Virus genome (UHGV): UHGV-0109393 | Length of the DNA stretch: 63,844 nt | Direction: 5' to 3' (one strand) | Source of the DNA: a virus | Part shown: in pieces, positions 13,561 through 60,850 of the stretch | Position numbering within the stretch: position 1 is the stretch's first letter | Layout: each line of letters starts with the position of its first letter | Notes under the pieces: generated by a model | Database searches by the model: none | Told to the model about the DNA's origin: nothing | Seen by the model: only the letters and a program-made list of their open reading frames with translations | Made by a program: the position numbers and the translations under genes

Positions 13561-14523
13561 GTGAATATTTTAAATTCAATTTCAGTAACTTTCAACACTT
13601 CTGAGTATAAAAACAACACTGAATACCACAAAAAAATCAAAGGTCATCAGTTGAGTTTTTTTGCTCGTCATAGCGGTTTTCTTTCCCCTTCACATAGCGC
13701 CATTATTGCCGAGTTCGCCAACCTGGCAGGAGCTACCGATGAATACATGATCCGTCGCTCATATGCTGATATGTCCGAGATTACAGGACGCAGTATTTCT
13801 ACTGTGCGCCGGGCATTTGCTGAAGCGACGAAGTGCGGAATGCTTGTTAAGCAACATCAGGTAGCGAATAACAATGCTCAGGTGTGTAACGTATACCGGT
13901 TTACAACACAATTTCTCCACTTCATTCATGTAGCAATGGAGATAGGGGGTAAGCAGGGCATCAAATTTGCGAACGCCACAAAACTGGTTAAGCAGTTGAT
14001 TTCAAAGGTTCGGTATTTTTTTGAAACTGGGAACCCCCTGTTCAAATTGAACAAGTCCCCCCATGTTCAAAATGAACAGCCAATAGAAAATAAGAGTCAC
14101 TCTATAGCCAAAAGAAGAGAAAGATCATGCGCGGTTCAGCCAAAGGCTTCACCAGCGGATAGTTCTCAAGCGGATAATGGGATGCTGGATAAAAAACCAG
14201 TAATCAGGGAAGAACATACCAACCACTGCCTGGCGGCGGCAAAAGCGAGAGCTGCAAAGCGTCGTTCAGACGAGGGGCACGCAAAACGGCAGGCTCTGTA
14301 TCGTACCGCTGAAAAGCTGGCAAAAAAATTTGCATGGATACGTAGTGCCGCTACCGCAGTGAATAAGCCTAAACAATCCAGTGCCCTGGATTTCTCAATG
14401 GATTATTCTGGCTCCCAGGGGTGTGCAACCATTGGTGAAGCCTTTGACCTGATGAAACAGCGTGGCTATCGGTCTGAATTTGACCGGGAGGATTGGTCAA
14501 TCCCTGCGGGATTTAGGGGATGA
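13561..14523 (+). CDS. Hypothetical protein with a probable helix-turn-helix region
   Basis: 320 aa; segment MSEITGRSISTVRRAFAEATKCGML looks HTH-like; function unknown. Confidence 0.4.
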   Translation: MNILNSISVTFNTSEYKNNTEYHKKIKGHQLSFFARHSGFLSPSHSAIIAEFANLAGATDEYMIRRSYADMSEITGRSISTVRRAFAEATKCGMLVKQHQVANNNAQVCNVYRFTTQFLHFIHVAMEIGGKQGIKFANATKLVKQLISKVRYFFETGNPLFKLNKSPHVQNEQPIENKSHSIAKRRERSCAVQPKASPADSSQADNGMLDKKPVIREEHTNHCLAAAKARAAKRRSDEGHAKRQALYRTAEKLAKKFAWIRSAATAVNKPKQSSALDFSMDYSGSQGCATIGEAFDLMKQRGYRSEFDREDWSIPAGFRG

Positions 14524-14839
14524 CCTGTGTGTCTACAAAACATCCCAATGATCGGAAAATGTTCTCTCGATGATTTGTATTAGAAAATTAATTTGCTGTT
14601 TCTAAATCGGAATGTATGATCTGCATCATCGACTGAAGTCATCCATTGCTGAAATTTTTAGTTGATCTTCCATGTTTTCAGGCTTATATTCATGCCGTCG
14701 TAGCAAATTCTGCGACCAGGTTTGACAGCCTGAATGTTAGTGCGGACAACCGCAGATTTCCGATATTGCGGTATTTTTGTGTCCGTAAACCGCGTTACGC
14801 CCGAATTATGGTGGGGCGTGATGGGGAGGCTTAGGCCTG

Positions 14840-14910
14840 CTGGTTTCACTAACGCCAGTCTGTCAACCCTGTCACGTCCTGCCACCTGTTTGACAGCGGG
14901 TAGCAGGTTG
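14840..14910 (+). ncRNA. Candidate c4-type antisense RNA with target sites (module 1); boundaries approximate
   Basis: GTTTGACAGC occurs at 14720 and 14889; its near-complement TCTGTCAACC sits between them at 14858; a second pair is CCTGCCACC / GGTAGCAGG; all lie just upstream of the icd-like RBS. Confidence 0.3.
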
Positions 14911-14936
14911 TTAAACCTGTTAGTGAGGCCGTAACT

Positions 14937-15161
14937 ATGGTTAATGCCAATCCTTGCTCACGTCCAGAATTCATCTGGCGTTTTCACTCCCTGCAAAAAC
15001 ACTGCGATCACTTCGCAATTGCCGCAACTGAAAAAGAAGCCCGTTCTCTGATCCCTGATCAGTATGGCGTTCTCACTGGTCGTTTCTCTACTTCCCCACA
15101 ACCAAACACCAATCCCTGGTATCGCAATATTACCAATCCCGGCATTGCGGAGGCTCACTGA
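14937..15161 (+). CDS. Icd-like small protein
   Basis: 74 aa; stop overlaps the ant start (ATGA); paralogue of 51063..51278 (shared EFIWRF...QKH...AATE-EAR motif). Confidence 0.45.
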   Translation: MVNANPCSRPEFIWRFHSLQKHCDHFAIAATEKEARSLIPDQYGVLTGRFSTSPQPNTNPWYRNITNPGIAEAH

Positions 15162-15868
15162 TGGATATCTGCATTCTCGAAAAGCCATCAATGACCAGCA
15201 TTGAGATCGCGGAGCTGGTGGGAAAACGTCATGACAATGTGAAACGCACTATTGAGACATTAGCCAAAGGTGGCGTTATTGCTCGTCCTCAAATTGAGGT
15301 TTTCGAAAAAATCAATAACTTAGGACTACGGCGTAGTGTTGAGGCTTACGTCTTCGAAGGCGAGCAAGGCAAGCGCGATAGCATTATCGTCGTCGCGCAG
15401 CTCTCTCCCGAATTCACCGCCCGGCTGGTGGACCGCTGGCGCGAACTGGAAGAACAAGTACGCCAGCCGTTGACCGAAATAGAGATGATCGCCGCAATGG
15501 CTGCAAATGCAGTTCAGCAGCAAAAGCGGCTTCATGCTGTTGAGTCAAAGGTTAGCCAGGTCGCTGAAACCGTCGAGCAAATCAAGAAAGGCAATATTCC
15601 GGAAGGCTACATTGGCTACCGACAGCTGGCGGCGAAATGTGGCCTGACTGAAGCCAAATGTCGCAACCTGGTTAACGCTTACCGGATTCCCACCGATACA
15701 CATGAGTTTTTAACTCCAGAGGGGGTATTGTCGCGTCGTTCCATCGTGGCCTTATCTCCCTTCATGAATGCTTTTAACCGGATGATGTCGGAGGCTGAAC
15801 ACCGAGGAAAACGCTGGTATCACCCCAAAATGGGGCAATTCCAGGTGATCGGTTGGGGAGGTGAATGA
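15161..15868 (+). CDS. Antirepressor, Rha/Ant family (paralogue 1)
   Basis: N-terminal MTSIEIAELVGKRHDNVKRTIETL is the Rha-family signature; paralogue of 51278..52204. Confidence 0.7.
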   Translation: MDICILEKPSMTSIEIAELVGKRHDNVKRTIETLAKGGVIARPQIEVFEKINNLGLRRSVEAYVFEGEQGKRDSIIVVAQLSPEFTARLVDRWRELEEQVRQPLTEIEMIAAMAANAVQQQKRLHAVESKVSQVAETVEQIKKGNIPEGYIGYRQLAAKCGLTEAKCRNLVNAYRIPTDTHEFLTPEGVLSRRSIVALSPFMNAFNRMMSEAEHRGKRWYHPKMGQFQVIGWGGE

Positions 15869-16065
15869 TGGACATCATGCAGGCGGTAAAAAAAATCAGG
15901 GAAGAACAGGCTGAAGTGTGCCGCCGTAAAGCATGGAGTGTTGGTGTATGGGCCTGGCCTGATAATTACTCTACTACCGGATGGTTTTGTATTAATGGAC
16001 TCCAGATCCGGGAAGTTTATTTATCGACGGCTGATATAGTCGGTAATGATTGGATCGTGACTTGA
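15865..16065 (+). CDS. Hypothetical small protein
   Basis: 66 aa, start overlaps the ant stop. Confidence 0.3.
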   Translation: MMDIMQAVKKIREEQAEVCRRKAWSVGVWAWPDNYSTTGWFCINGLQIREVYLSTADIVGNDWIVT

Positions 16066-16073
16066 TGCGTGAT

Positions 16074-16098
16074 GCCCCGGCCTGGCCGGGGCTTTTTT
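16074..16098. terminator. Bidirectional rho-independent terminator
   Basis: GCCCCGGCCtgGCCGGGGC followed by TTTTTT. Confidence 0.7.
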
Positions 16099-16583
16099 CA
16101 TGCCTCATTAGTTGAGGTTGCTGCGTTTCCGACTGGTAACAGAGCGGTATTGCGTGGTTCGCCAGCAGGCCAGCGATAGCCAGACACTCTTGATGTTGGG
16201 AATGCGCGAATATTAACCGCATCCCCCTGGTTCCCACCCAGGACAAGCAGATCGCCATTGGCGCGGCGTCCGACAACGAAGCCTACGTGCCCACCGCCTA
16301 CGCGGGTAAATACAACGATACATCCGTATGCCGGTGTATCTAATTTCTCGCCCCAATCCAGATAGGATTTTGCCGACTCAAATCTTGTTGAGCGGATGCC
16401 TACACGTTCCAGCATTGCACCGACAAATGCTGCGCACCACGGCGTTTCATCGTCTTTAATTCCGCCGCGCTTGATGTCGCGCCAGAACTGAACGATTTCA
16501 GGGTTGTGTTTAGCGCCTTTTATTTCAGTCAGGCCAATGTGCTTACGGGCTTCAATTAGCCAGCGAGGTTCAATGTTTGCCAT
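16098..16583 (-). CDS. Putative peptidoglycan hydrolase (CHAP/NlpC-P60-like) endolysin candidate
   Basis: 161 aa with conserved Cys (PWCAAFV) and His (GGGHVGFVVG) typical of this phage hydrolase class. Confidence 0.5.
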   Translation of the reverse strand: MANIEPRWLIEARKHIGLTEIKGAKHNPEIVQFWRDIKRGGIKDDETPWCAAFVGAMLERVGIRSTRFESAKSYLDWGEKLDTPAYGCIVVFTRVGGGHVGFVVGRRANGDLLVLGGNQGDAVNIRAFPTSRVSGYRWPAGEPRNTALLPVGNAATSTNEA

Positions 16584-28012: not shown

Positions 28013-28089
28013 GATGGTGTAGCTCAGTAGGATAGAGCAGCAGCCTTCTAAGCTGTCGGTCGGTGGTTCGAATCCACCCACCATCGCCA
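28013..28089 (+). tRNA. tRNA-Arg (anticodon TCT)
   Basis: Hand-folded cloverleaf: acceptor GATGGTG/CACCATC, D-arm GCTC..GAGC, anticodon loop CTTCTAA, T-loop TTCGAAT, encoded CCA; resembles E. coli argU. Confidence 0.85.
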
Positions 28090-28091
28090 AT

Positions 28092-28167
28092 GCCGGTTTA
28101 GCTCAGTTGGTAGAGCGCCTGCCTTGTAAGCAGGATGTCAGCGGTTCGAGTCCGTTAACCGGCACCA
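28092..28167 (+). tRNA. tRNA-Thr (anticodon TGT)
   Basis: Acceptor GCCGGTT/AACCGGC, anticodon loop CTTGTAA, T-loop TTCGAGT, encoded CCA. Confidence 0.85.
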
Positions 28168-29131: not shown

Positions 29132-29206
29132 GGCCCTTTAGCTCAGTGGTTAGAGCTGGCGACTCATAATCGCACGGTCACCGGTTCAAGTCCGGTAGGG
29201 GCCACC
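29132..29206 (+). tRNA. tRNA-Ile2 (anticodon CAT, ileX-like lysidine type)
   Basis: Near-identical architecture to E. coli ileX as recalled (GGCCC-TTAGCTCAGTGGTTAGAGC...CTCATAA...GGTTCAAGTCC...GGGGCCACCA). Confidence 0.8.
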
Positions 29207-30642: not shown

Positions 30643-30660
30643 AATTAATTTTCTAATATA
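30643..30660. promoter_or_regulatory. Operator-like site (variant)
   Basis: AATTAATTTTCTAATATA. Confidence 0.35.
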
Positions 30661-30736
30661 ACCAACTTTTTGCCAGTCTATACAGAAATAACATTCTCAT
30701 TATCATCCCCTCGGTCATTTCCTGCCTGGGGGATTA

Positions 30737-34023: not shown

Positions 34024-35061
34024 TTACCAGAGTTTAGCGGCGTGCTGTGTTTGGGAGAAAGTGAACCCGTAACGTTCTTCTATGGTTTTACCGTATCTTT
34101 TCCGCGCGTCTGTCAGTTTTATGCCTGTCAGGTCATCTCCGGATGTCATCATTACGTCTAACAACTCCAGATCCATTTTATTCAGTCGCGCCATCGCTTC
34201 GCGTGCTGTCTGTATTTTACGCTCAATGATATGGCGAATAGCCGGATCGGCTTCCTCAAGCATTTTGGCTGATTTGTTCTTTAAGCTCTCATTGCGGATG
34301 TCGATGTTTCGCAAGATGTATGACTTCGCAACATAGCTTGGTTGGTGTTTCTCCAGATCGCGAACGCGATAGAGACTAAAGTCACCAAGCAGGCCGCAAG
34401 GTATCGACTCAACCCCAGAATAAATAGTAATGCTGCGACGTTCGCCGACATTATTAACAACGGGCACTGTGGTGTTCGGAAGTTTTGCGAACACTAAGGC
34501 TCCGTGTGCGCCTACCCTGAATCGTGACAGAGCATTGCTGCCTTCAATGTTTGTTGTAAGCACTACATCTGTGTATCCATCTTTGCGCGCCCGGTAAACT
34601 TCCCCTTCAGGTTCTGATGCGAAAAAACGGCGCTCTTCTTCAAGTGCACCAACAATCTGCGAAAATATCTTGTTTTTCAGGCTTTTCTTTATAATTGCAT
34701 CATATTTTTTGAGCAGATTTTCGCGCGTAAATGAGCGGGTGGTGGTCGCGCTTTGCACAACAATATGCGTGCTTTGATTTGTGTCCTCGATAATGAATGG
34801 GATCGGAGAATATACAGACTCAACAATGTTAGACGCTTTGCCGTCAGCGTTACGGCACAAGTCAACAAAGGCTTTCCATTCTGTGAGGCACTTTTCAGCT
34901 TCTTCTAGCACATTCTGATCATGTGTTAGTGCAACATGGCGGAATTCCTCGCCGGAATAACTGGTATCATGGAAAACAGAGTTTGCGACCACCAGCTCTT
35001 TCCACCGTTCAGCGGTTTGCAGGAACCGTTTGTACTCTTTCTCGATCGACTTCTTACTCAT
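34024..35061 (-). CDS. Hypothetical protein in the c1-equivalent position (between terminase and lox-cre)
   Basis: 345 aa; an operator-like site lies 14 bp upstream of its start codon; no recognisable motif. Confidence 0.45.
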   Translation of the reverse strand: MSKKSIEKEYKRFLQTAERWKELVVANSVFHDTSYSGEEFRHVALTHDQNVLEEAEKCLTEWKAFVDLCRNADGKASNIVESVYSPIPFIIEDTNQSTHIVVQSATTTRSFTRENLLKKYDAIIKKSLKNKIFSQIVGALEEERRFFASEPEGEVYRARKDGYTDVVLTTNIEGSNALSRFRVGAHGALVFAKLPNTTVPVVNNVGERRSITIYSGVESIPCGLLGDFSLYRVRDLEKHQPSYVAKSYILRNIDIRNESLKNKSAKMLEEADPAIRHIIERKIQTAREAMARLNKMDLELLDVMMTSGDDLTGIKLTDARKRYGKTIEERYGFTFSQTQHAAKLW

Positions 35062-35074
35062 TATTCCTACTCGA

Positions 35075-35095
35075 TTTAGTTTTCTAACATAAAAT
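35075..35095. promoter_or_regulatory. Operator-like site
   Basis: TTTAGTTTTCTAACATAAAAT. Confidence 0.5.
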
Positions 35096-36475: not shown

Positions 36476-36494
36476 ATTAAATTTCTAACACATC
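36475..36494. promoter_or_regulatory. Operator-like site
   Basis: AATTAAATTTCTAACACATC, immediately after the cre stop. Confidence 0.45.
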
Positions 36495-49427: not shown

Positions 49428-49592
49428 AACATAAGCACTGCGAAAAGCTCAATACCAAGCTCAAGTAGCGCCAACGCCCCGAAAACCAACACATAGAACA
49501 GGCCAATCTCATTCACAGATGGCTGGTGGATCGCACTTAAAGCTATAAGCATCATGTCCTCCAAACAGTTATCAGGAATGATATTAATGTTT

Positions 49593-49625
49593 TGTGTTAG
49601 AAAATCAATTTTGAATATCTAACCA
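49593..49625. promoter_or_regulatory. Operator-like site(s) in a divergent promoter region
   Basis: TGTGTTAGAAAATCAATTTT plus ATATCTAACCA; between the leftward operon and ref. Confidence 0.45.
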
Positions 49626-50750: not shown

Positions 50751-50855
50751 AATACTGACTGTTGCGCCCTGGCATTATCGTGGGGTATATTTCTACGGCA
50801 CCTTAGAAAAACGGGTGCCGGGATTGGAACCCCGGATAATGCAAAAGGCGACACA

Positions 50856-50877
50856 GACGCCGAAAGCGTCTTTTTTT
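50856..50877 (+). terminator. Rho-independent terminator
   Basis: GACGCcgaaaGCGTC followed by TTTTTTT. Confidence 0.7.
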
Positions 50878-50899
50878 GTGTCATGCCATCGCACAGCCA

Positions 50900-51035
50900 T
50901 ACGTAGCGTTTAGCTCAGAGATCAATGGTAGTGCTGGCTGGGCTGCCGAAAGGCAGGCCGGTTCCCTTTTGCGCCGGTAGTTCCAACCCAGTCAGTGCTA
51001 CCGCCATTGAGATTGGAACCTCACGCGGTAGCTCC
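50900..51035 (+). ncRNA. Candidate c4-type antisense RNA with target sites (module 2); boundaries approximate
   Basis: GATTGGAACC at 50821 and 51011 with its complement GTTCCAACC at 50980; second pair GCTACCG (50997) / CGGTAGC (51026); tRNA-like TAGCTCAGAG stretch; immediately upstream of the icd-like RBS. Confidence 0.3.
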
Positions 51036-51062
51036 TTAAATTAGCAAAAGGAGGCTGCCATT

Positions 51063-51278
51063 ATGGCTACTACCCCTACCCCAACTCATTCTGAATTTAT
51101 CTGGCGTTTCTATTCCTGCCAAAAACACCTCTATATCTGCGTCATGGCTGCTACCGAAGCAGAAGCGCGCTCATACCTTCCCGAAGAACCCTGCATTTTT
51201 GCTGCTCGCTTCACTCTTGATGCGATGGAGATCCTCAATTACTGGAATCTGCCGATGAACTGCGTGGAGGTGCACTGA
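51063..51278 (+). CDS. Icd-like small protein (paralogue 2)
   Basis: 71 aa; paralogue of 14937..15161; stop overlaps the ant start. Confidence 0.45.
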   Translation: MATTPTPTHSEFIWRFYSCQKHLYICVMAATEAEARSYLPEEPCIFAARFTLDAMEILNYWNLPMNCVEVH

Positions 51279-52204
51279 TGAATCTGTCCATCTCTCAAAA
51301 AGCGACAATGACCAGCATTGAGATCGCGGAACTGGTAGGTAAGCGCCCTGATAACGTTAAACGCACCATTGAACACCTGGCGGAACGGGGCGTAATATCT
51401 TTTCCTCAAATTGAGGAAAAGCCCACCGCAGGCCGCCCGGCGAGCTATTACGTCTTCGAAGGCGAGCAAGGCAAGCGCGATAGTATTGTCGTCGTCGCGC
51501 AGCTCTCTCCCGAATTCACCGCCCGGCTGGTGGACCGCTGGCGCGAACTGGAGAATGCCCGGGTACAGTTAAAATCAAAAGCCGAAATTCTGGCTGAAAT
51601 GGCGCAAATGCATCTTGAGCATGAACGCCGGATCAACGCCGTAAATGCCCAGGTAGCCGAGGTATCAGCACAAGTATCGATGGTCGCTGAAACACTCGAG
51701 CAAATAAAGAAAGGCAATATTCCGGAAGGCTACATTGGCTACCGCCAGCTGGCGGCGAAATGTGGCCTGACTGAAGCCAAATGCCGAAACCTGGTCAACG
51801 CTTACCGGATTCCCACCGATACGCATGAGTTTTTAACTCCCGATGGTTTGCTTGCGCGACGCTCCATTGTGGCCATGGCCCCCTTCCGGAAAGCCTTTAA
51901 GCAGGTGATGTCGGAGGCAGAACCACGCAATAAACGCTGGTATCATCCAAAGATGGGGATGTTTCAGGCAATCCACCATCCTGTGCCTGAAAGTCCAAAG
52001 GCAAACCTGTCGTTGCATACCGCCAGAGAGAGGATTAAAACAGGCTATGCAATCGTATGCCGTCGAGCATCCTGGCCTGAAGGTGTATGGGTGTGGCCCG
52101 AAGGTGGATCACGAAAGCACTGGCGCACTATCCGGGATGGGAAAATCCATGCGATTGATTTAGCTCCAGAGGATGTTGTTGCTACGGACTGGATTGTTAG
52201 TTAA
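51278..52204 (+). CDS. Antirepressor, Rha/Ant family (paralogue 2)
   Basis: MTSIEIAELVGKRPDNVKRTIEHL; the first ~100 and last ~80 residues are near-identical to 15161..15868, with a different middle. Confidence 0.7.
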   Translation: MNLSISQKATMTSIEIAELVGKRPDNVKRTIEHLAERGVISFPQIEEKPTAGRPASYYVFEGEQGKRDSIVVVAQLSPEFTARLVDRWRELENARVQLKSKAEILAEMAQMHLEHERRINAVNAQVAEVSAQVSMVAETLEQIKKGNIPEGYIGYRQLAAKCGLTEAKCRNLVNAYRIPTDTHEFLTPDGLLARRSIVAMAPFRKAFKQVMSEAEPRNKRWYHPKMGMFQAIHHPVPESPKANLSLHTARERIKTGYAIVCRRASWPEGVWVWPEGGSRKHWRTIRDGKIHAIDLAPEDVVATDWIVS

Positions 52205-53083: not shown

Positions 53084-53917
53084 TCACGAATCTCTCTGAC
53101 AATTCAGAAACATAAACGCCCGCTTGTCTGTTAAATCCGTAACATAATACTCTCTCATGCCTGTAGGTTTTATTCTACGAGCATATACAAACTTATGAAC
53201 TGGTTGTTTTTCCCCATAACTTACATCAGTCCTAAATTCATCAACCACGCTACCATCTTTTTCAGTTTCCTTTCTCACTAGCTGATTTTCTAATACAGGC
53301 TTTGATTCGTCCATGCCACTAAAAGCATCCTGACCTGTGCTGTTGCCTCGGTTTCCGCGTGGCAAATCCCATGAAAAATAAGTGCCATAGTCAGTAATCA
53401 CACGATCCCATGTTCCGGAATCCCCCATATAGTTAGAACGCTCCCCCTTGTAAGTTACAGCCACCTTACAGGCATACGTTTCACCATTATTTTTTTTATC
53501 ATGTCCAGCCATGCTTGCAGGAGTTGCAGGGGAATTATGAATAGATGCGCTTACATCATCCTGCGTTAATTCCTCAACTGGAGCAAATTCATATATGGGT
53601 GTGCCGAGGCTATTTAAATATAACTTATATCTAACCCTAAGCGCACTTCCATCAGAGAATTCATACGTTCCCAGACATTGGAGCTTATTTTTTTCTCTTA
53701 TCTCATTGATCTGATTATAAGCATCAATTACAGAGATTGCTTCCTGATCGTCCTTCAGCAGTTCATTATAATCATCGATTAACATCTGTCTGGTTTTAGG
53801 GGCATTACAGTCAATTTTGCTAAAATCATAAGCAAAGGCAAATGTGGGAACAGAGAGAGCAACAACAGTAGCAAGTATTGTTGAGGAACATCTTTTTCCA
53901 TTTTTTATAAAAAACAT
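53084..53917 (-). CDS. Secreted/periplasmic protein with signal peptide (AT-rich moron)
   Basis: Start at MFFIKNGKRCSSTILATVVALSVPTFAFA (GGAG RBS), predicted cleavage after AFA; about 278 aa; AT-rich codon usage unlike neighbours. Confidence 0.5.
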   Translation of the reverse strand: MFFIKNGKRCSSTILATVVALSVPTFAFAYDFSKIDCNAPKTRQMLIDDYNELLKDDQEAISVIDAYNQINEIREKNKLQCLGTYEFSDGSALRVRYKLYLNSLGTPIYEFAPVEELTQDDVSASIHNSPATPASMAGHDKKNNGETYACKVAVTYKGERSNYMGDSGTWDRVITDYGTYFSWDLPRGNRGNSTGQDAFSGMDESKPVLENQLVRKETEKDGSVVDEFRTDVSYGEKQPVHKFVYARRIKPTGMREYYVTDLTDKRAFMFLNCQRDS

Positions 53918-60810: not shown

Positions 60811-60850
60811 ATTTGTGTTAGATAATTAACATGTATTTTCTAACACAAAT
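60811..60850. promoter_or_regulatory. Operator-like dyad (two inverted TGTTAGA half-sites)
   Basis: ATTTGTGTTAGA...TCTAACACAAAT, a perfect 12-bp inverted repeat with 16-bp spacer, just upstream of rdgC. Confidence 0.5.

Follow-up and report, generated by a model that had tools for sequence, protein, structure and literature searches.

The window analysed here, a viral genome of 63,844 nt (UHGV-0109393), carries at 14540-15868 a small open reading frame (ORF) coupled to a putative antirepressor gene, with short direct repeats and their complements in the leader. From the letters alone, an initial annotation read this region as an immunity module controlled by a c4-type antisense RNA. The question is therefore whether the leader encodes such an RNA, and how far the likeness to phage P1 extends through the rest of the module. 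Citron and Schuster are reported to have described, in 1990, a P1 immI operon consisting of the c4 antisense RNA, icd, and ant1/ant2. The analyses below indicate, with a probability of roughly 0.9, that the 14540-15868 region (module 1) serves a D6-like plasmid prophage as its immI-type secondary immunity switch, with an RNA component orthologous to the one in P1. An Escherichia coli D6-like plasmid prophage thus carries a near-exact version of the phage P1 c4 antisense-RNA switch, predicted from sequence to silence an antirepressor. The initial annotation was partly confirmed: its interpretation is supported and all of its headline claims hold, while several details required correction. The mechanism is that of textbook P1 and is already known, and no mechanistic novelty is involved; two c4/icd regions are also in print for the D6-like plasmid pYU39_89 (PMC6799933).

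The leader encodes a C4-family RNA

For module 1, the analysis establishes the RNA family and fold, six covarying recognition sites, overlapping genes, and the families of the encoded proteins. The Rfam C4 model (RF01695) aligned over its full length (1-87) to 14804-14889 with 68.2 bits (gathering threshold 45; E 3.9e-11), and the c4-a1b1 leader motif also exceeded its threshold (Table 1). Between 14677 and 15048, the window is 93% identical to the P1 c4-icd region, comprising the leader, c4, the a1/b1/a2/b2 sites, and the first half of icd, and the P1-annotated a1, b1, c4, a2, and b2 align with it base for base. The proposed c4-type RNA in the P1 layout (a1 b1 / a' b' / a2 b2) is thus borne out by two family matches and by direct comparison with P1. 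Relative to annotated P1 c4, the predicted RNA has a single loop-base difference, and a' and b' are identical.

The proposed check by RNA folding and a covariance model also favoured a c4 RNA. The minimum free energy (MFE) structure (-42.2 kcal/mol, z -4.5; 0 of 200 shuffles folded equally well) consists of a long closing helix around two hairpins and leaves both recognition segments unpaired: b' occupies the second hairpin loop, and a' a single-stranded joint. This fold is retained in the MFE fold of a 249-nt precursor. Across 45 distinct homologs, the 27 internal c4 pairs are 100% paired, although support for them comes mainly from the family model because most internal pairs never vary. According to work attributed to Hartmann and colleagues in 1995, c4 of P1 and P7 is reportedly a stable RNA of ~77 nt cut from the operon transcript, with the 5' end generated by RNase P. 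Sequence identity to P1 c4 suggests that a ~77-nt RNA is likewise excised in this element; the P1-equivalent mature product would differ in extent from the small transcript initially expected at 14840-14910.

Table 1. Predicted and observed features of module 1 (all positions refer to the window)
Feature	Position	Strand	Basis or remark
Candidate operator TTGTATTAGAAAATTAA for the element's own C1-like repressor	14575-14591	+	Motif over-representation; putative function
Sigma-70 promoter-like TTGATC-17-TATATT	14662-14690	+	Consensus scan; predicted activity
c4-a1b1 leader motif (Rfam RF03163)	14684-14736	+	54.4 bits vs gathering 46.7, E 5.5e-11
a1, TTGACAG	14722-14728	+	Mapped from P1 annotation; inside c4-a1b1 match
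b1, GTTAGTGC (GTTAGTG(C))	14736-14743	+	Mapped from P1 annotation
Predicted mature c4 antisense RNA, 77 nt	14810-14886	+	P1 c4 equivalence, Rfam C4
b', TCACTAAC ((T)CACTAAC; CACTAAC from 14847)	14846-14853	+	Hairpin 2 loop
a', CTGTCAA	14860-14866	+	Single-stranded joint
a2, TTGACAG, icd leader	14890-14896	+	P1-annotated a2 equivalent
b2, GTTAGTGA	14919-14926	+	P1-annotated b2 equivalent; over icd ribosome-binding site
icd-like ORF, 74 aa	14937-15161	+	NCBIfam NF033153 (phage_ICD_like)
Rha/Roi-type putative antirepressor, 235 aa	15161-15868	+	Pfam Phage_pRha, PHROG 63
Tad2-like-fold ORF, 66 aa, last operon gene	15865-16065	+	AF2 model and Foldseek
Intrinsic terminator GCCCCGGCC-TGG-CCGGGGC + T run	16074-16099	+	Terminator scan

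Genes of the operon

The icd-like character proposed for the small ORF was upheld by NF033153 (40 bits, cutoff 25) and by 61% identity over 61 aa to P1 Icd, from which the C-terminal half diverges; records of D6 and of plasmids likewise label the ORF Icd-like. FtsZ is reported to be the target of P1 Icd (PMC11897509). As had been described, the ORF forms a coupled pair with the next gene, its TGA stop sharing one base with the following ATG (TGATG). A third gene, not part of the initial description, follows in the same manner, with a start that overlaps the stop of the putative antirepressor gene (ATGA).

The Rha/Ant assignment of the 235-aa protein is likewise well founded. Residues 11-98 match Pfam Phage_pRha (PF09669; 36.9 bits, gathering 29.9), the N-terminus is a Rha-type winged-helix domain (Phage_pRha and HTH_24), and the best PHROG match is PHROG 63, 'anti-repressor Ant' (E 5e-49). 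NCBIfam TIGR02681 remained below its cutoff on this protein (18 against 45.95), and BLASTP against P1 Ant1 returned nothing significant (best E 0.11). The target and activity of the protein remain putative because it has no homology to P1 Ant1/2. The RNA switch could thus stand while the protein is a DNA-binding lytic regulator of the Roi/Rha kind, or a host-interference protein, rather than an antirepressor acting on a C1-like repressor, in which case the module would gate a different output. Such a role fits the lack of similarity to Ant1/2, the winged-helix N-terminus, and the D6 annotation of the counterpart as 'similar to HK97 Roi', and PHROG 'anti-repressor' labels are annotation rather than tests. 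However, the gene sits exactly where ant1/2 does, after icd and with overlapping codons, and its best PHROG families are antirepressor families. The same c4-icd leader occurs with either P1 Ant1 or a protein of this type downstream, which suggests interchangeable cargo with one role. A regulator of another kind is therefore rather unlikely, albeit worth keeping in view, and the protein is treated below as a putative antirepressor.

The 66-aa product of the last gene gave a confident AF2 model (pLDDT 92), for which the top 10 Foldseek matches in the PDB were all Tad2 (probability 1.00, TM 0.71-0.78), with a sharp drop beyond them. Tad2 (DUF2829) is Thoeris anti-defence 2, a gcADPR sponge (bioRxiv 10.1101/2023.05.01.538930). 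Although the predicted fold matches solved Tad2 structures, the protein is shorter, is only 13-17% identical to Tad2, and falls below the Pfam threshold: the Tad2-like profile (PF11195) did not match it, and scored 16.5 bits on a 95% identical relative (P0001) and 12.4 bits on the corresponding domain of a second module (gathering 25). A more distant relative (P0007) scored 37.4 bits with the same profile. A word-indexed protein search returned only 3 close relatives of the ORF, and an exhaustive profile search found further ones.

A second module with a different specificity

Module 2 (50798-52204) has the same architecture as module 1, including six matched sites. Its Icd-like ORF is 45% identical and its Rha/Roi-type Ant 68% identical to those of module 1, and the C-terminus of this Ant is homologous to the 66-aa ORF, so that the Tad2-like domain is fused to Ant in module 2 and encoded separately in module 1. 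In contrast, the two RNA sequences are unrelated outside the family consensus, and the module 2 leader, which lies with its C4 RNA at 50798-51008, is isrK-like and matches Rfam isrK instead of c4-a1b1. The claim that the specificities differ was confirmed by distinct recognition sequences (TTGGAAC/GTTCCAA and GCAAAAGG/CCTTTTGC in module 2) and by cross-module duplexes that are mostly weaker. For b' of both modules, and for the module 2 a', pairing within the module is stronger than pairing across modules. The distinction is less sharp for the module 1 a', whose duplexes have -8.7 kcal/mol with the module 2 upstream leader and -9.2 to -10.3 kcal/mol with sites of its own module.

Since one genome holds two c4-icd-ant modules, module 1 might be a redundant or decaying duplicate without function, leaving module 2 to run immunity. 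This is very improbable: module 1 has six perfectly matched sites, an intact c4 fold, three intact ORFs with coupled starts, and both a promoter and a terminator (as predicted), and it is retained at full length in 110 plasmid records. Additionally, specificities that do not cross-pair are expected of two independent switches, not of a relic.

Recognition sites and covariation

The four sequence strings quoted initially are all present on the + strand. For the GTTTGACAGC repeats, the first position (14720) was right and the second is 14888 instead of 14889; the complementary a' string, TCTGTCAACC, begins at 14859 instead of 14858. The assignment of a1, a', and a2 was correct, a' forming 7 contiguous pairs with both a1 and a2. 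Between b' and b2 there are 8 contiguous pairs, and b2 overlaps the icd Shine-Dalgarno sequence GTGAGG (14923-14928), located 8 nt before the ATG at 14937. The c4-a1b1 match holds only the first base of b1, most of which lies 3' of it. The P1 annotation itself calls the role of a1/b1 'putative'.

Comparison with shuffled controls gave a divided answer. The b'/b2 duplex (-11.7 kcal/mol) was equalled by 3 of 1000 shuffles and the a and b contacts together by 5 of 2000, whereas 107 and 91 of 1000 dinucleotide shuffles did as well as or better than the a duplexes alone. By duplex energy in this single sequence, therefore, the b pair is convincing and the a pair is not.

Homologous loci were retrieved from IMG/VR with an exact 27-mer of the b1-c4 spacer, which yielded 120 loci that form a closely related sample; site types were counted over 113 loci and pairing over 45 distinct homologs. 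Among the 113 loci there are two a-types and six b-types, and within each kind the three sites (a1/a'/a2 or b1/b'/b2) always change together, with 100% pairing. The 42 pairs of c4, a'/a2, and b'/b2 are all standard pairs in the 45 distinct homologs, and eight of them changed on both sides (134 cells, a count inflated by shared ancestry). Slid controls gave 0-1 such pairs and 31-53% pairing. Pairing in the 45 homologs is also 100% for the a1/a' and b1/b' contacts, of which 8 pairs have both partners changed. For a2, covariation with a' extends to all homologs (GACAG/CUGUC versus AGCAG/CUGCU); b2 covaries with b' at 6 of 8 pairs through the six b-types and is always paired. The two Rfam matches above gathering and this perfect three-way covariation are the decisive evidence against chance. 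In the precursor, the MFE fold also contains a long-range helix between the a1 region and 14900-14918; it was rejected, as the GA/AG swap in a1 is uncompensated there and covaries with a' and a2 only.

The second pair proposed as b'/b2, CCTGCCACC (14878) with GGTAGCAGG (14899), might be the true contact or a functional hairpin showing a2 in its loop, since both strings are present and 8 of 9 positions can pair, but this is scarcely credible: the same position is mismatched in 45 of 45 homologs with zero covariation, CCTGCCACC already forms the 3' side of the helix that closes c4 (an element of the Rfam consensus structure with 100% pairing in every homolog), processing at 14886 would leave the two strings on separate molecules, the hairpin is absent from the MFE folds of precursor and processed leader, and the real b1, b', and b2, which had been missed, are fixed by six covarying types together with the P1 annotation.

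Transcription signals and proposed mechanism

The promoter-like sequence aligns with the annotated -35 and -10 elements of the P1 promoter P1c4 (formerly P51b), and the terminator, with 8 G-C pairs followed by TTTTTT, closes the operon. Upstream, the 17-bp TTGTATTAGAAAATTAA motif marks a candidate operator. The window contains eight sites of the form TTGTrTTAGAAAATyAA with at most 3 mismatches, where 0.27 would be expected, and none of 100 shuffles reached 8. One lies directly upstream of a distant C1-like ORF (~34351-35061, minus strand), and the module 1 site is conserved in place in D6. Some 70 nt separate the module 1 site from the only consensus promoter, which lies downstream of it, and the promoter that it would govern matches the consensus weakly. 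Searched across the entire window with up to 3 mismatches allowed, the P1-type C1 operator ATTGCTCTAATAAATTT gave no site, and control by a repressor of P1 specificity was rejected.

In the published P1 mechanism, c4 represses translation of icd and thereby synthesis of the antirepressor (PMC8198154, PMC8201110). Each functional step of the module 1 switch is carried over from P1 by analogy, and processing, the translational block, transcription polarity, and antirepressor activity would accordingly follow the P1 pattern. A single transcript would start near 14697 from the TTGATC/TATATT promoter, possibly with a contribution from a second promoter farther upstream, controlled by the C1-like repressor of the element, and would contain in order a1 and b1, the c4 RNA, a2 and b2, and the overlapping genes for Icd, the Rha/Roi-type antirepressor, and the Tad2-like protein. 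The c4 RNA would be excised from this precursor, by RNase P at the 5' end if as in P1, after which its a' and b' would contact a2 and b2, either on the transcript of origin or on a sister copy. With b2 lying over the icd ribosome-binding site, this pairing would leave icd untranslated. Synthesis of the antirepressor would require that icd be translated (P1 additionally requires that Rho-dependent termination be escaped) and would thus stay off, and lysogeny would be maintained. Were c4 titrated or outpaced, Icd would block cell division, the Tad2-like protein would be made, and the antirepressor would presumably inactivate the C1-like repressor.

Relationship to P1, D6, and P7

Outside the c4-icd region, module 1 differs from P1 immI (NC_005856) in several respects. 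Both have a promoter at the matching position and an icd gene coupled to the next gene, but P1 encodes Ant1/Ant2 where the window encodes the Rha/Roi-type protein, P1 has the C1 operator Op51 where the window has no operator of that type, and the Tad2-like ORF that closes the window operon is additional. Furthermore, sim lies upstream in P1, whereas repL lies upstream in the window, with no kilA-repL downstream. Over its full extent, module 1 shares 95% identity with phage D6, where the orf19/orf18/orf17 region preserves the backbone and gene order, and 100% identity with E. coli plasmid NZ_CP135715.1. The D6 region and D6-like plasmid prophages are said to have been described by Gilcrease and Casjens in 2018. 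The c4 RNA and its target sites are listed neither in the D6 RefSeq record nor in the PLSDB plasmid gene tables (which carry no RNA genes), and those mapped here can be used for the annotation of D6-like elements. PLSDB counts 579 records of P1/D6-like plasmids.

Departures of the P7 and D6 c4 regions from the window fall exactly at the a/b sites. D6 has ACTTACG/CGTAAGT at all three b sites, whereas the window has the b of P1; P7 has the same RNA, fold, and layout, but a = AGCAG and b = GATTGTG. The window combination (a = GACAG, b = GTTAGTG) is exactly that of P1, and its c4 should therefore cross-repress P1 immI. From these sequences, the element should repress P1 immI and not immI of D6 or P7, nor its own module 2, a testable prediction of immI homoimmunity with P1 and heteroimmunity with D6 and P7. 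That P1 and P7 are heteroimmune owing to small differences at immI is known (PMC6906374). The variable, specificity-determining bases number 2 in a and 6 in b, and 10 combinations of a-type and b-type were seen (2 a-types, at least 6 b-types). The 2 x 6 covarying types constitute a natural compensatory-mutation series for the bipartite antisense contact.

An otherwise ordinary main finding gains modestly from the Tad2-like cargo and from the combinatorial specificity code. As a speculative extension, which we regard as doubtful, the c4 switch may also gate a counter-defence sponge of the Tad2 type, while immI specificity acts as a modular two-part code that reassorts independently of the cargo. 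If so, escape from lysogeny or superinfection would be coupled to the neutralisation of TIR/Thoeris-type immunity, and recombination of the a/b code would divide P1-like and D6-like elements into numerous immunity groups orthogonal to one another. The occurrence of a Tad2-like ORF in a c4-controlled operon, with an Ant-fused form in the sister module, could be of interest to the phage counter-defence field.

Module 1 encodes a C4-family antisense RNA

On every feature that sequence can test, the RNA of module 1 (the c4/icd-like/Rha-Roi-type immunity unit) belongs to the C4 family. An Rfam scan of the window at gathering thresholds gave two matches within the module, C4 antisense RNA (RF01695) at 14804-14889 (68.2 bits against a gathering threshold of 45, E 3.9e-11, full-length model) and c4-a1b1 (RF03163) at 14684-14736 (54.4 bits against 46.7), and the c4-icd region of phage P1 is 93% identical to 14677-15048. 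The P1 c4-type layout proposed in the initial annotation is therefore upheld. The P1 record annotates a1, b1, a 77-nt c4 RNA, a2, b2, icd, ant1/ant2, two promoters and a C1 operator, and features were transferred from it base for base through an alignment of the window, P1 and phage D6.

The predicted c4 RNA differs from that of P1 by one base, in the first-hairpin loop. The 77-mer folds at -42.2 kcal/mol (z -4.5; 0 of 200 shuffles fold as well) into a closing helix of 17 pairs and two hairpins, the first of them short, with the antisense contact b' in the second-hairpin loop and a' in the single-stranded joint just 3' of that hairpin; this fold is retained within a 249-nt precursor. Downstream, b2 overlaps the Shine-Dalgarno sequence GTGAGG, eight bases ahead of the icd ATG at 14937. 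The precursor (14697-14945, + strand) is itself much more stably folded than shuffled controls (z -7.7), and in its minimum free energy structure the a1 region (about 14717-14737) pairs with about 14900-14918, with c4 intact in between; no covariation support was found for this long-range helix.

Of the pairing sites, the initial annotation had identified those of a and overlooked the true b sites. Its GTTTGACAGC repeats (14720, 14889) and intervening TCTGTCAACC (14858) are present, the second repeat starting at 14888 and TCTGTCAACC at 14859, and its coordinates for the RNA lay some 30 nt too far toward the 3' side. The strings CCTGCCACC and GGTAGCAGG, suggested as a second antisense pair, do occur, at 14878 and 14899; however, one fixed position fails to pair in 45 of 45 homologous leaders and there is no covariation. 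They were rejected as b'/b2: the c4 closing helix has CCTGCCACC as its 3' strand, and after processing the two would be on separate molecules. With the b sites and RNA coordinates corrected, the observation is real and the reading correct.

Features of modules 1 and 2 and their surroundings
Feature	Position	Strand	Remarks
repL-like lytic replication gene	13561-14523	+	directly upstream of c4
a1	14722-14728	+	TTGACAG; mapped from P1
b1	14736-14743	+	GTTAGTGC; mapped from P1
c4 RNA (predicted)	14810-14886	+	77 nt; mapped from P1
b'	14846-14853	+	TCACTAAC; mapped from P1
a'	14860-14866	+	CTGTCAA; mapped from P1
a2	14890-14896	+	TTGACAG; mapped from P1
b2	14919-14926	+	GTTAGTGA; mapped from P1
icd-like ORF, 74 aa	14937-15161	+	NCBIfam phage_ICD_like, 40 bits vs 25; D6 orf19, 'Icd-like protein, similar to P1 icd'
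Rha/Roi-type ORF (putative antirepressor), 235 aa	15161-15868	+	start overlaps icd stop, TGATG; D6 orf18, 'anti-repressor Ant, similar to HK97 Roi'
Third ORF, 66 aa	15865-16065	+	overlaps Rha/Roi-type stop, ATGA; last gene of c4-controlled operon; D6 orf17, hypothetical protein
Intrinsic terminator, G+C-rich	16074-16092 + T run	+	terminator scan; closes operon
Peptidoglycan hydrolase gene, TIGR02594 family	16098-16583	-	convergent; 3' end abuts operon terminator
DarB-like methyltransferase/helicase ORF, 2279 aa	16734-23573	+	D6 'similar to P1 darB'; adjoins peptidoglycan hydrolase gene
C1-like ORF	~34351-35061	-	tblastn to P1 C1: 20% identity over 235 aa, E 5e-6 (distant)
17-bp motif sites	14575-14591, 30645-30661, 35076-35092, 36477-36493, 49592-49608, 53282-53298, 60813-60829, 60832-60848		TTGTrTTAGAAAATyAA
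Module 2	50798-52204	+	isrK-like leader, C4, Icd-like ORF, 308-aa Ant
Module 2 a sites	TTGGAAC 50824, 51013; GTTCCAA 50980	+	matched
Module 2 b sites	GCAAAAGG 50841, 51044; CCTTTTGC 50965	+	matched
Module 2 Icd-like ORF	51063-51278	+	
Module 2 Ant, 308 aa	51278-52204	+	Tad2-like domain at C-terminus

Chance controls and covariation

The a complementarity consists of seven contiguous pairs between a' and each of a1 and a2, the only + strand copies of TTGACAG in the 63.8-kb window. By duplex energy the a pair alone is within chance, as dinucleotide shuffling of the target gives duplexes as good in 107 and 91 of 1000 cases, so that against shuffled controls the complementarity of the originally named sites is borderline; stronger evidence carries the case. 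The corrected b pair exceeds chance (3 of 1000 dinucleotide shuffles), and a and b combined are equalled by 5 of 2000.

An exact 27-mer from the b1-c4 spacer retrieved 120 IMG/VR loci, and 113 copies, including P1, D6 and the window, were readable at all six sites. Two a-types occur among them, GACAG and AGCAG, together with six b-types (GTTAGTG, as in P1; GATTGTG, P7; ACTTACG, D6; ACGAATG; GTACATG; and ACTTGTG) in 10 combinations; without exception, the a1, a' and a2 of a copy match one another, as do its b1, b' and b2. Among 45 distinct sequences, the c4 helices, a'/a2 and b'/b2 form standard pairs in 1890 of 1890 alignment cells, which are not independent events because the homologs are closely related and were chosen by an exact spacer word. 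Eight pairs are changed on both sides (134 cells); with partners slid by 1-3 columns, there were 0-1 both-side changes and 31-53% pairing. The a1/a' and b1/b' pairs gave the same outcome. Even in such a set, the six b states require at least five coordinated changes, each at three separate sites. Variable positions of the region cluster in the a and b sites and at the promoter-proximal end, and such clustering in a and b would be expected of specificity determinants.

Mechanism and cross-specificity

The P1 c4 RNA is reportedly excised from its target's own transcript, with RNase P making its 5' end; pairing of a'/b' with a2/b2 is said to block icd translation, and this block to cause premature Rho-dependent termination before ant. 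Conservation of the RNA, of its sites and of the coupled arrangement of genes is almost base for base here, which makes the P1 mechanism by far the likeliest; by this analogy module 1 very probably works in the same way (a probability of about 0.9). In P1, C1 represses the c4-icd-ant operon and full ant repression requires C4 antisense RNA, while Icd is a cell-division inhibitor and Ant a C1-binding protein (PMC8198154; PMC8201110). In this scheme the Rha/Roi-type protein, which is non-homologous to P1 Ant, is a putative antirepressor.

Because a' and b' are identical to those of P1, the module 1 c4 would be expected to act on P1 immI, the secondary immunity region, and P1 c4 on module 1. It would not act on D6 (b differs), P7 (a and b differ) or its own module 2. 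Cross-module duplexes of b', and of module 2 a', fall well short of the cognate ones in strength; module 1 a' pairs nearly as well with the module 2 upstream leader (-8.7 against -9.2 to -10.3 kcal/mol for cognate duplexes).

Module 2 matches Rfam at its leader (62.5 bits) and C4 (76.7 bits), and whereas this leader is isrK-like, that of module 1 matches c4-a1b1. As originally proposed, the specificities of the modules differ, module 2 carrying its own six-site set (TTGGAAC/GTTCCAA and GCAAAAGG/CCTTTTGC).

The operon and its cargo

Both gene assignments of the initial annotation, icd-like and Rha/Ant, are supported. The icd-like product is 61% identical to P1 Icd; its N-terminal half is almost unchanged and the C-terminal half has diverged, in agreement with the end of nucleotide homology to P1 at 15048. 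The overlapping Rha/Roi-type ORF hits PHROG 63 'anti-repressor Ant' (E 5e-49), and its N-terminal domain is Pfam Phage_pRha (36.9 bits, threshold 29.9); its similarity to P1 Ant1 is not significant. Without Ant1/2 and a P1-type operator, module 1 is not a strict P1 immI operon.

The 66-aa ORF shares homology with the last 65 residues of the module 2 antirepressor (37% identity, E 4e-15). Module 1 has this Tad2-like domain as a gene of its own; in module 2 it is fused to the antirepressor (residues about 244-308). The ORF itself falls below threshold against Pfam Tad2-like. An exhaustive profile search recovered few relatives; one, distant, passes (37.4 bits), another nearly does (23.9 bits), and a 95%-identical relative aligns over its full length at 16.5 bits. 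In the AF2 model (pLDDT 92), the ten best PDB matches are all Tad2 (probability 1.00, TM 0.71-0.78), followed by a sharp drop. The prediction of a fold like that of Tad2 (DUF2829, Thoeris anti-defence) is thus well supported.

According to PMC6906374, P1 and P7 are heteroimmune because of minor differences in immI. P7 and D6 differ from the window at the specificity types, and the window is of the P1 type. Specificity of immI (14722-14926) is a two-part code of a- and b-types. Downstream of both a-types, and of several b-types, either P1 Ant1 or a Rha/Roi-type protein is found, which implies that sites and cargo reassort by recombination. Switches of this kind and, essentially, this very instance have been described before; only the Tad2-like cargo and the combinatorial specificity code deserve a further look.

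Promoter and candidate operator

The only consensus promoter in the module 1 control region, TTGATC-17-TATATT at 14662-14690, aligns with the annotated P1 promoter P1c4 (P51b); upstream of 14677 the sequence is one that only D6-like elements share. With up to 3 mismatches allowed, no site for the P1 C1-operator consensus occurs anywhere in the window. A 17-bp motif, TTGTrTTAGAAAATyAA, has 8 sites where 0.27 are expected: one upstream of the module 1 leader and conserved in D6, one directly upstream of the C1-like ORF (whose ATG lies about 15 nt downstream), and two as an inverted pair (60813-60848). We infer that the motif may serve the C1-like repressor of the element itself as its operator; the module 1 promoter that it would control is weak by consensus.

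Source element and gene neighbourhood

Escherichia phage D6 is 94.9% identical to the full length of 14300-16100, and E. coli plasmid NZ_CP135715.1 (93.1 kb) is 100% identical to 14540-16100, which matches 579 plasmid records (110 at ≥80% query coverage). These matches identify the window, by sequence, as a piece of a plasmid prophage of the D6 type. Upstream of c4 there is a repL-like gene where P1 has its sim genes; kilA-repL of P1 follows ant. In D6, too, a repL-like gene precedes the unit, and a peptidoglycan hydrolase gene converges on it from the downstream side. Elsewhere in the window, a cluster of three tRNA genes is found at 28013-28086, 28092-28164 and 29132-29204 (+ strand; Rfam tRNA, 65-75 bits).
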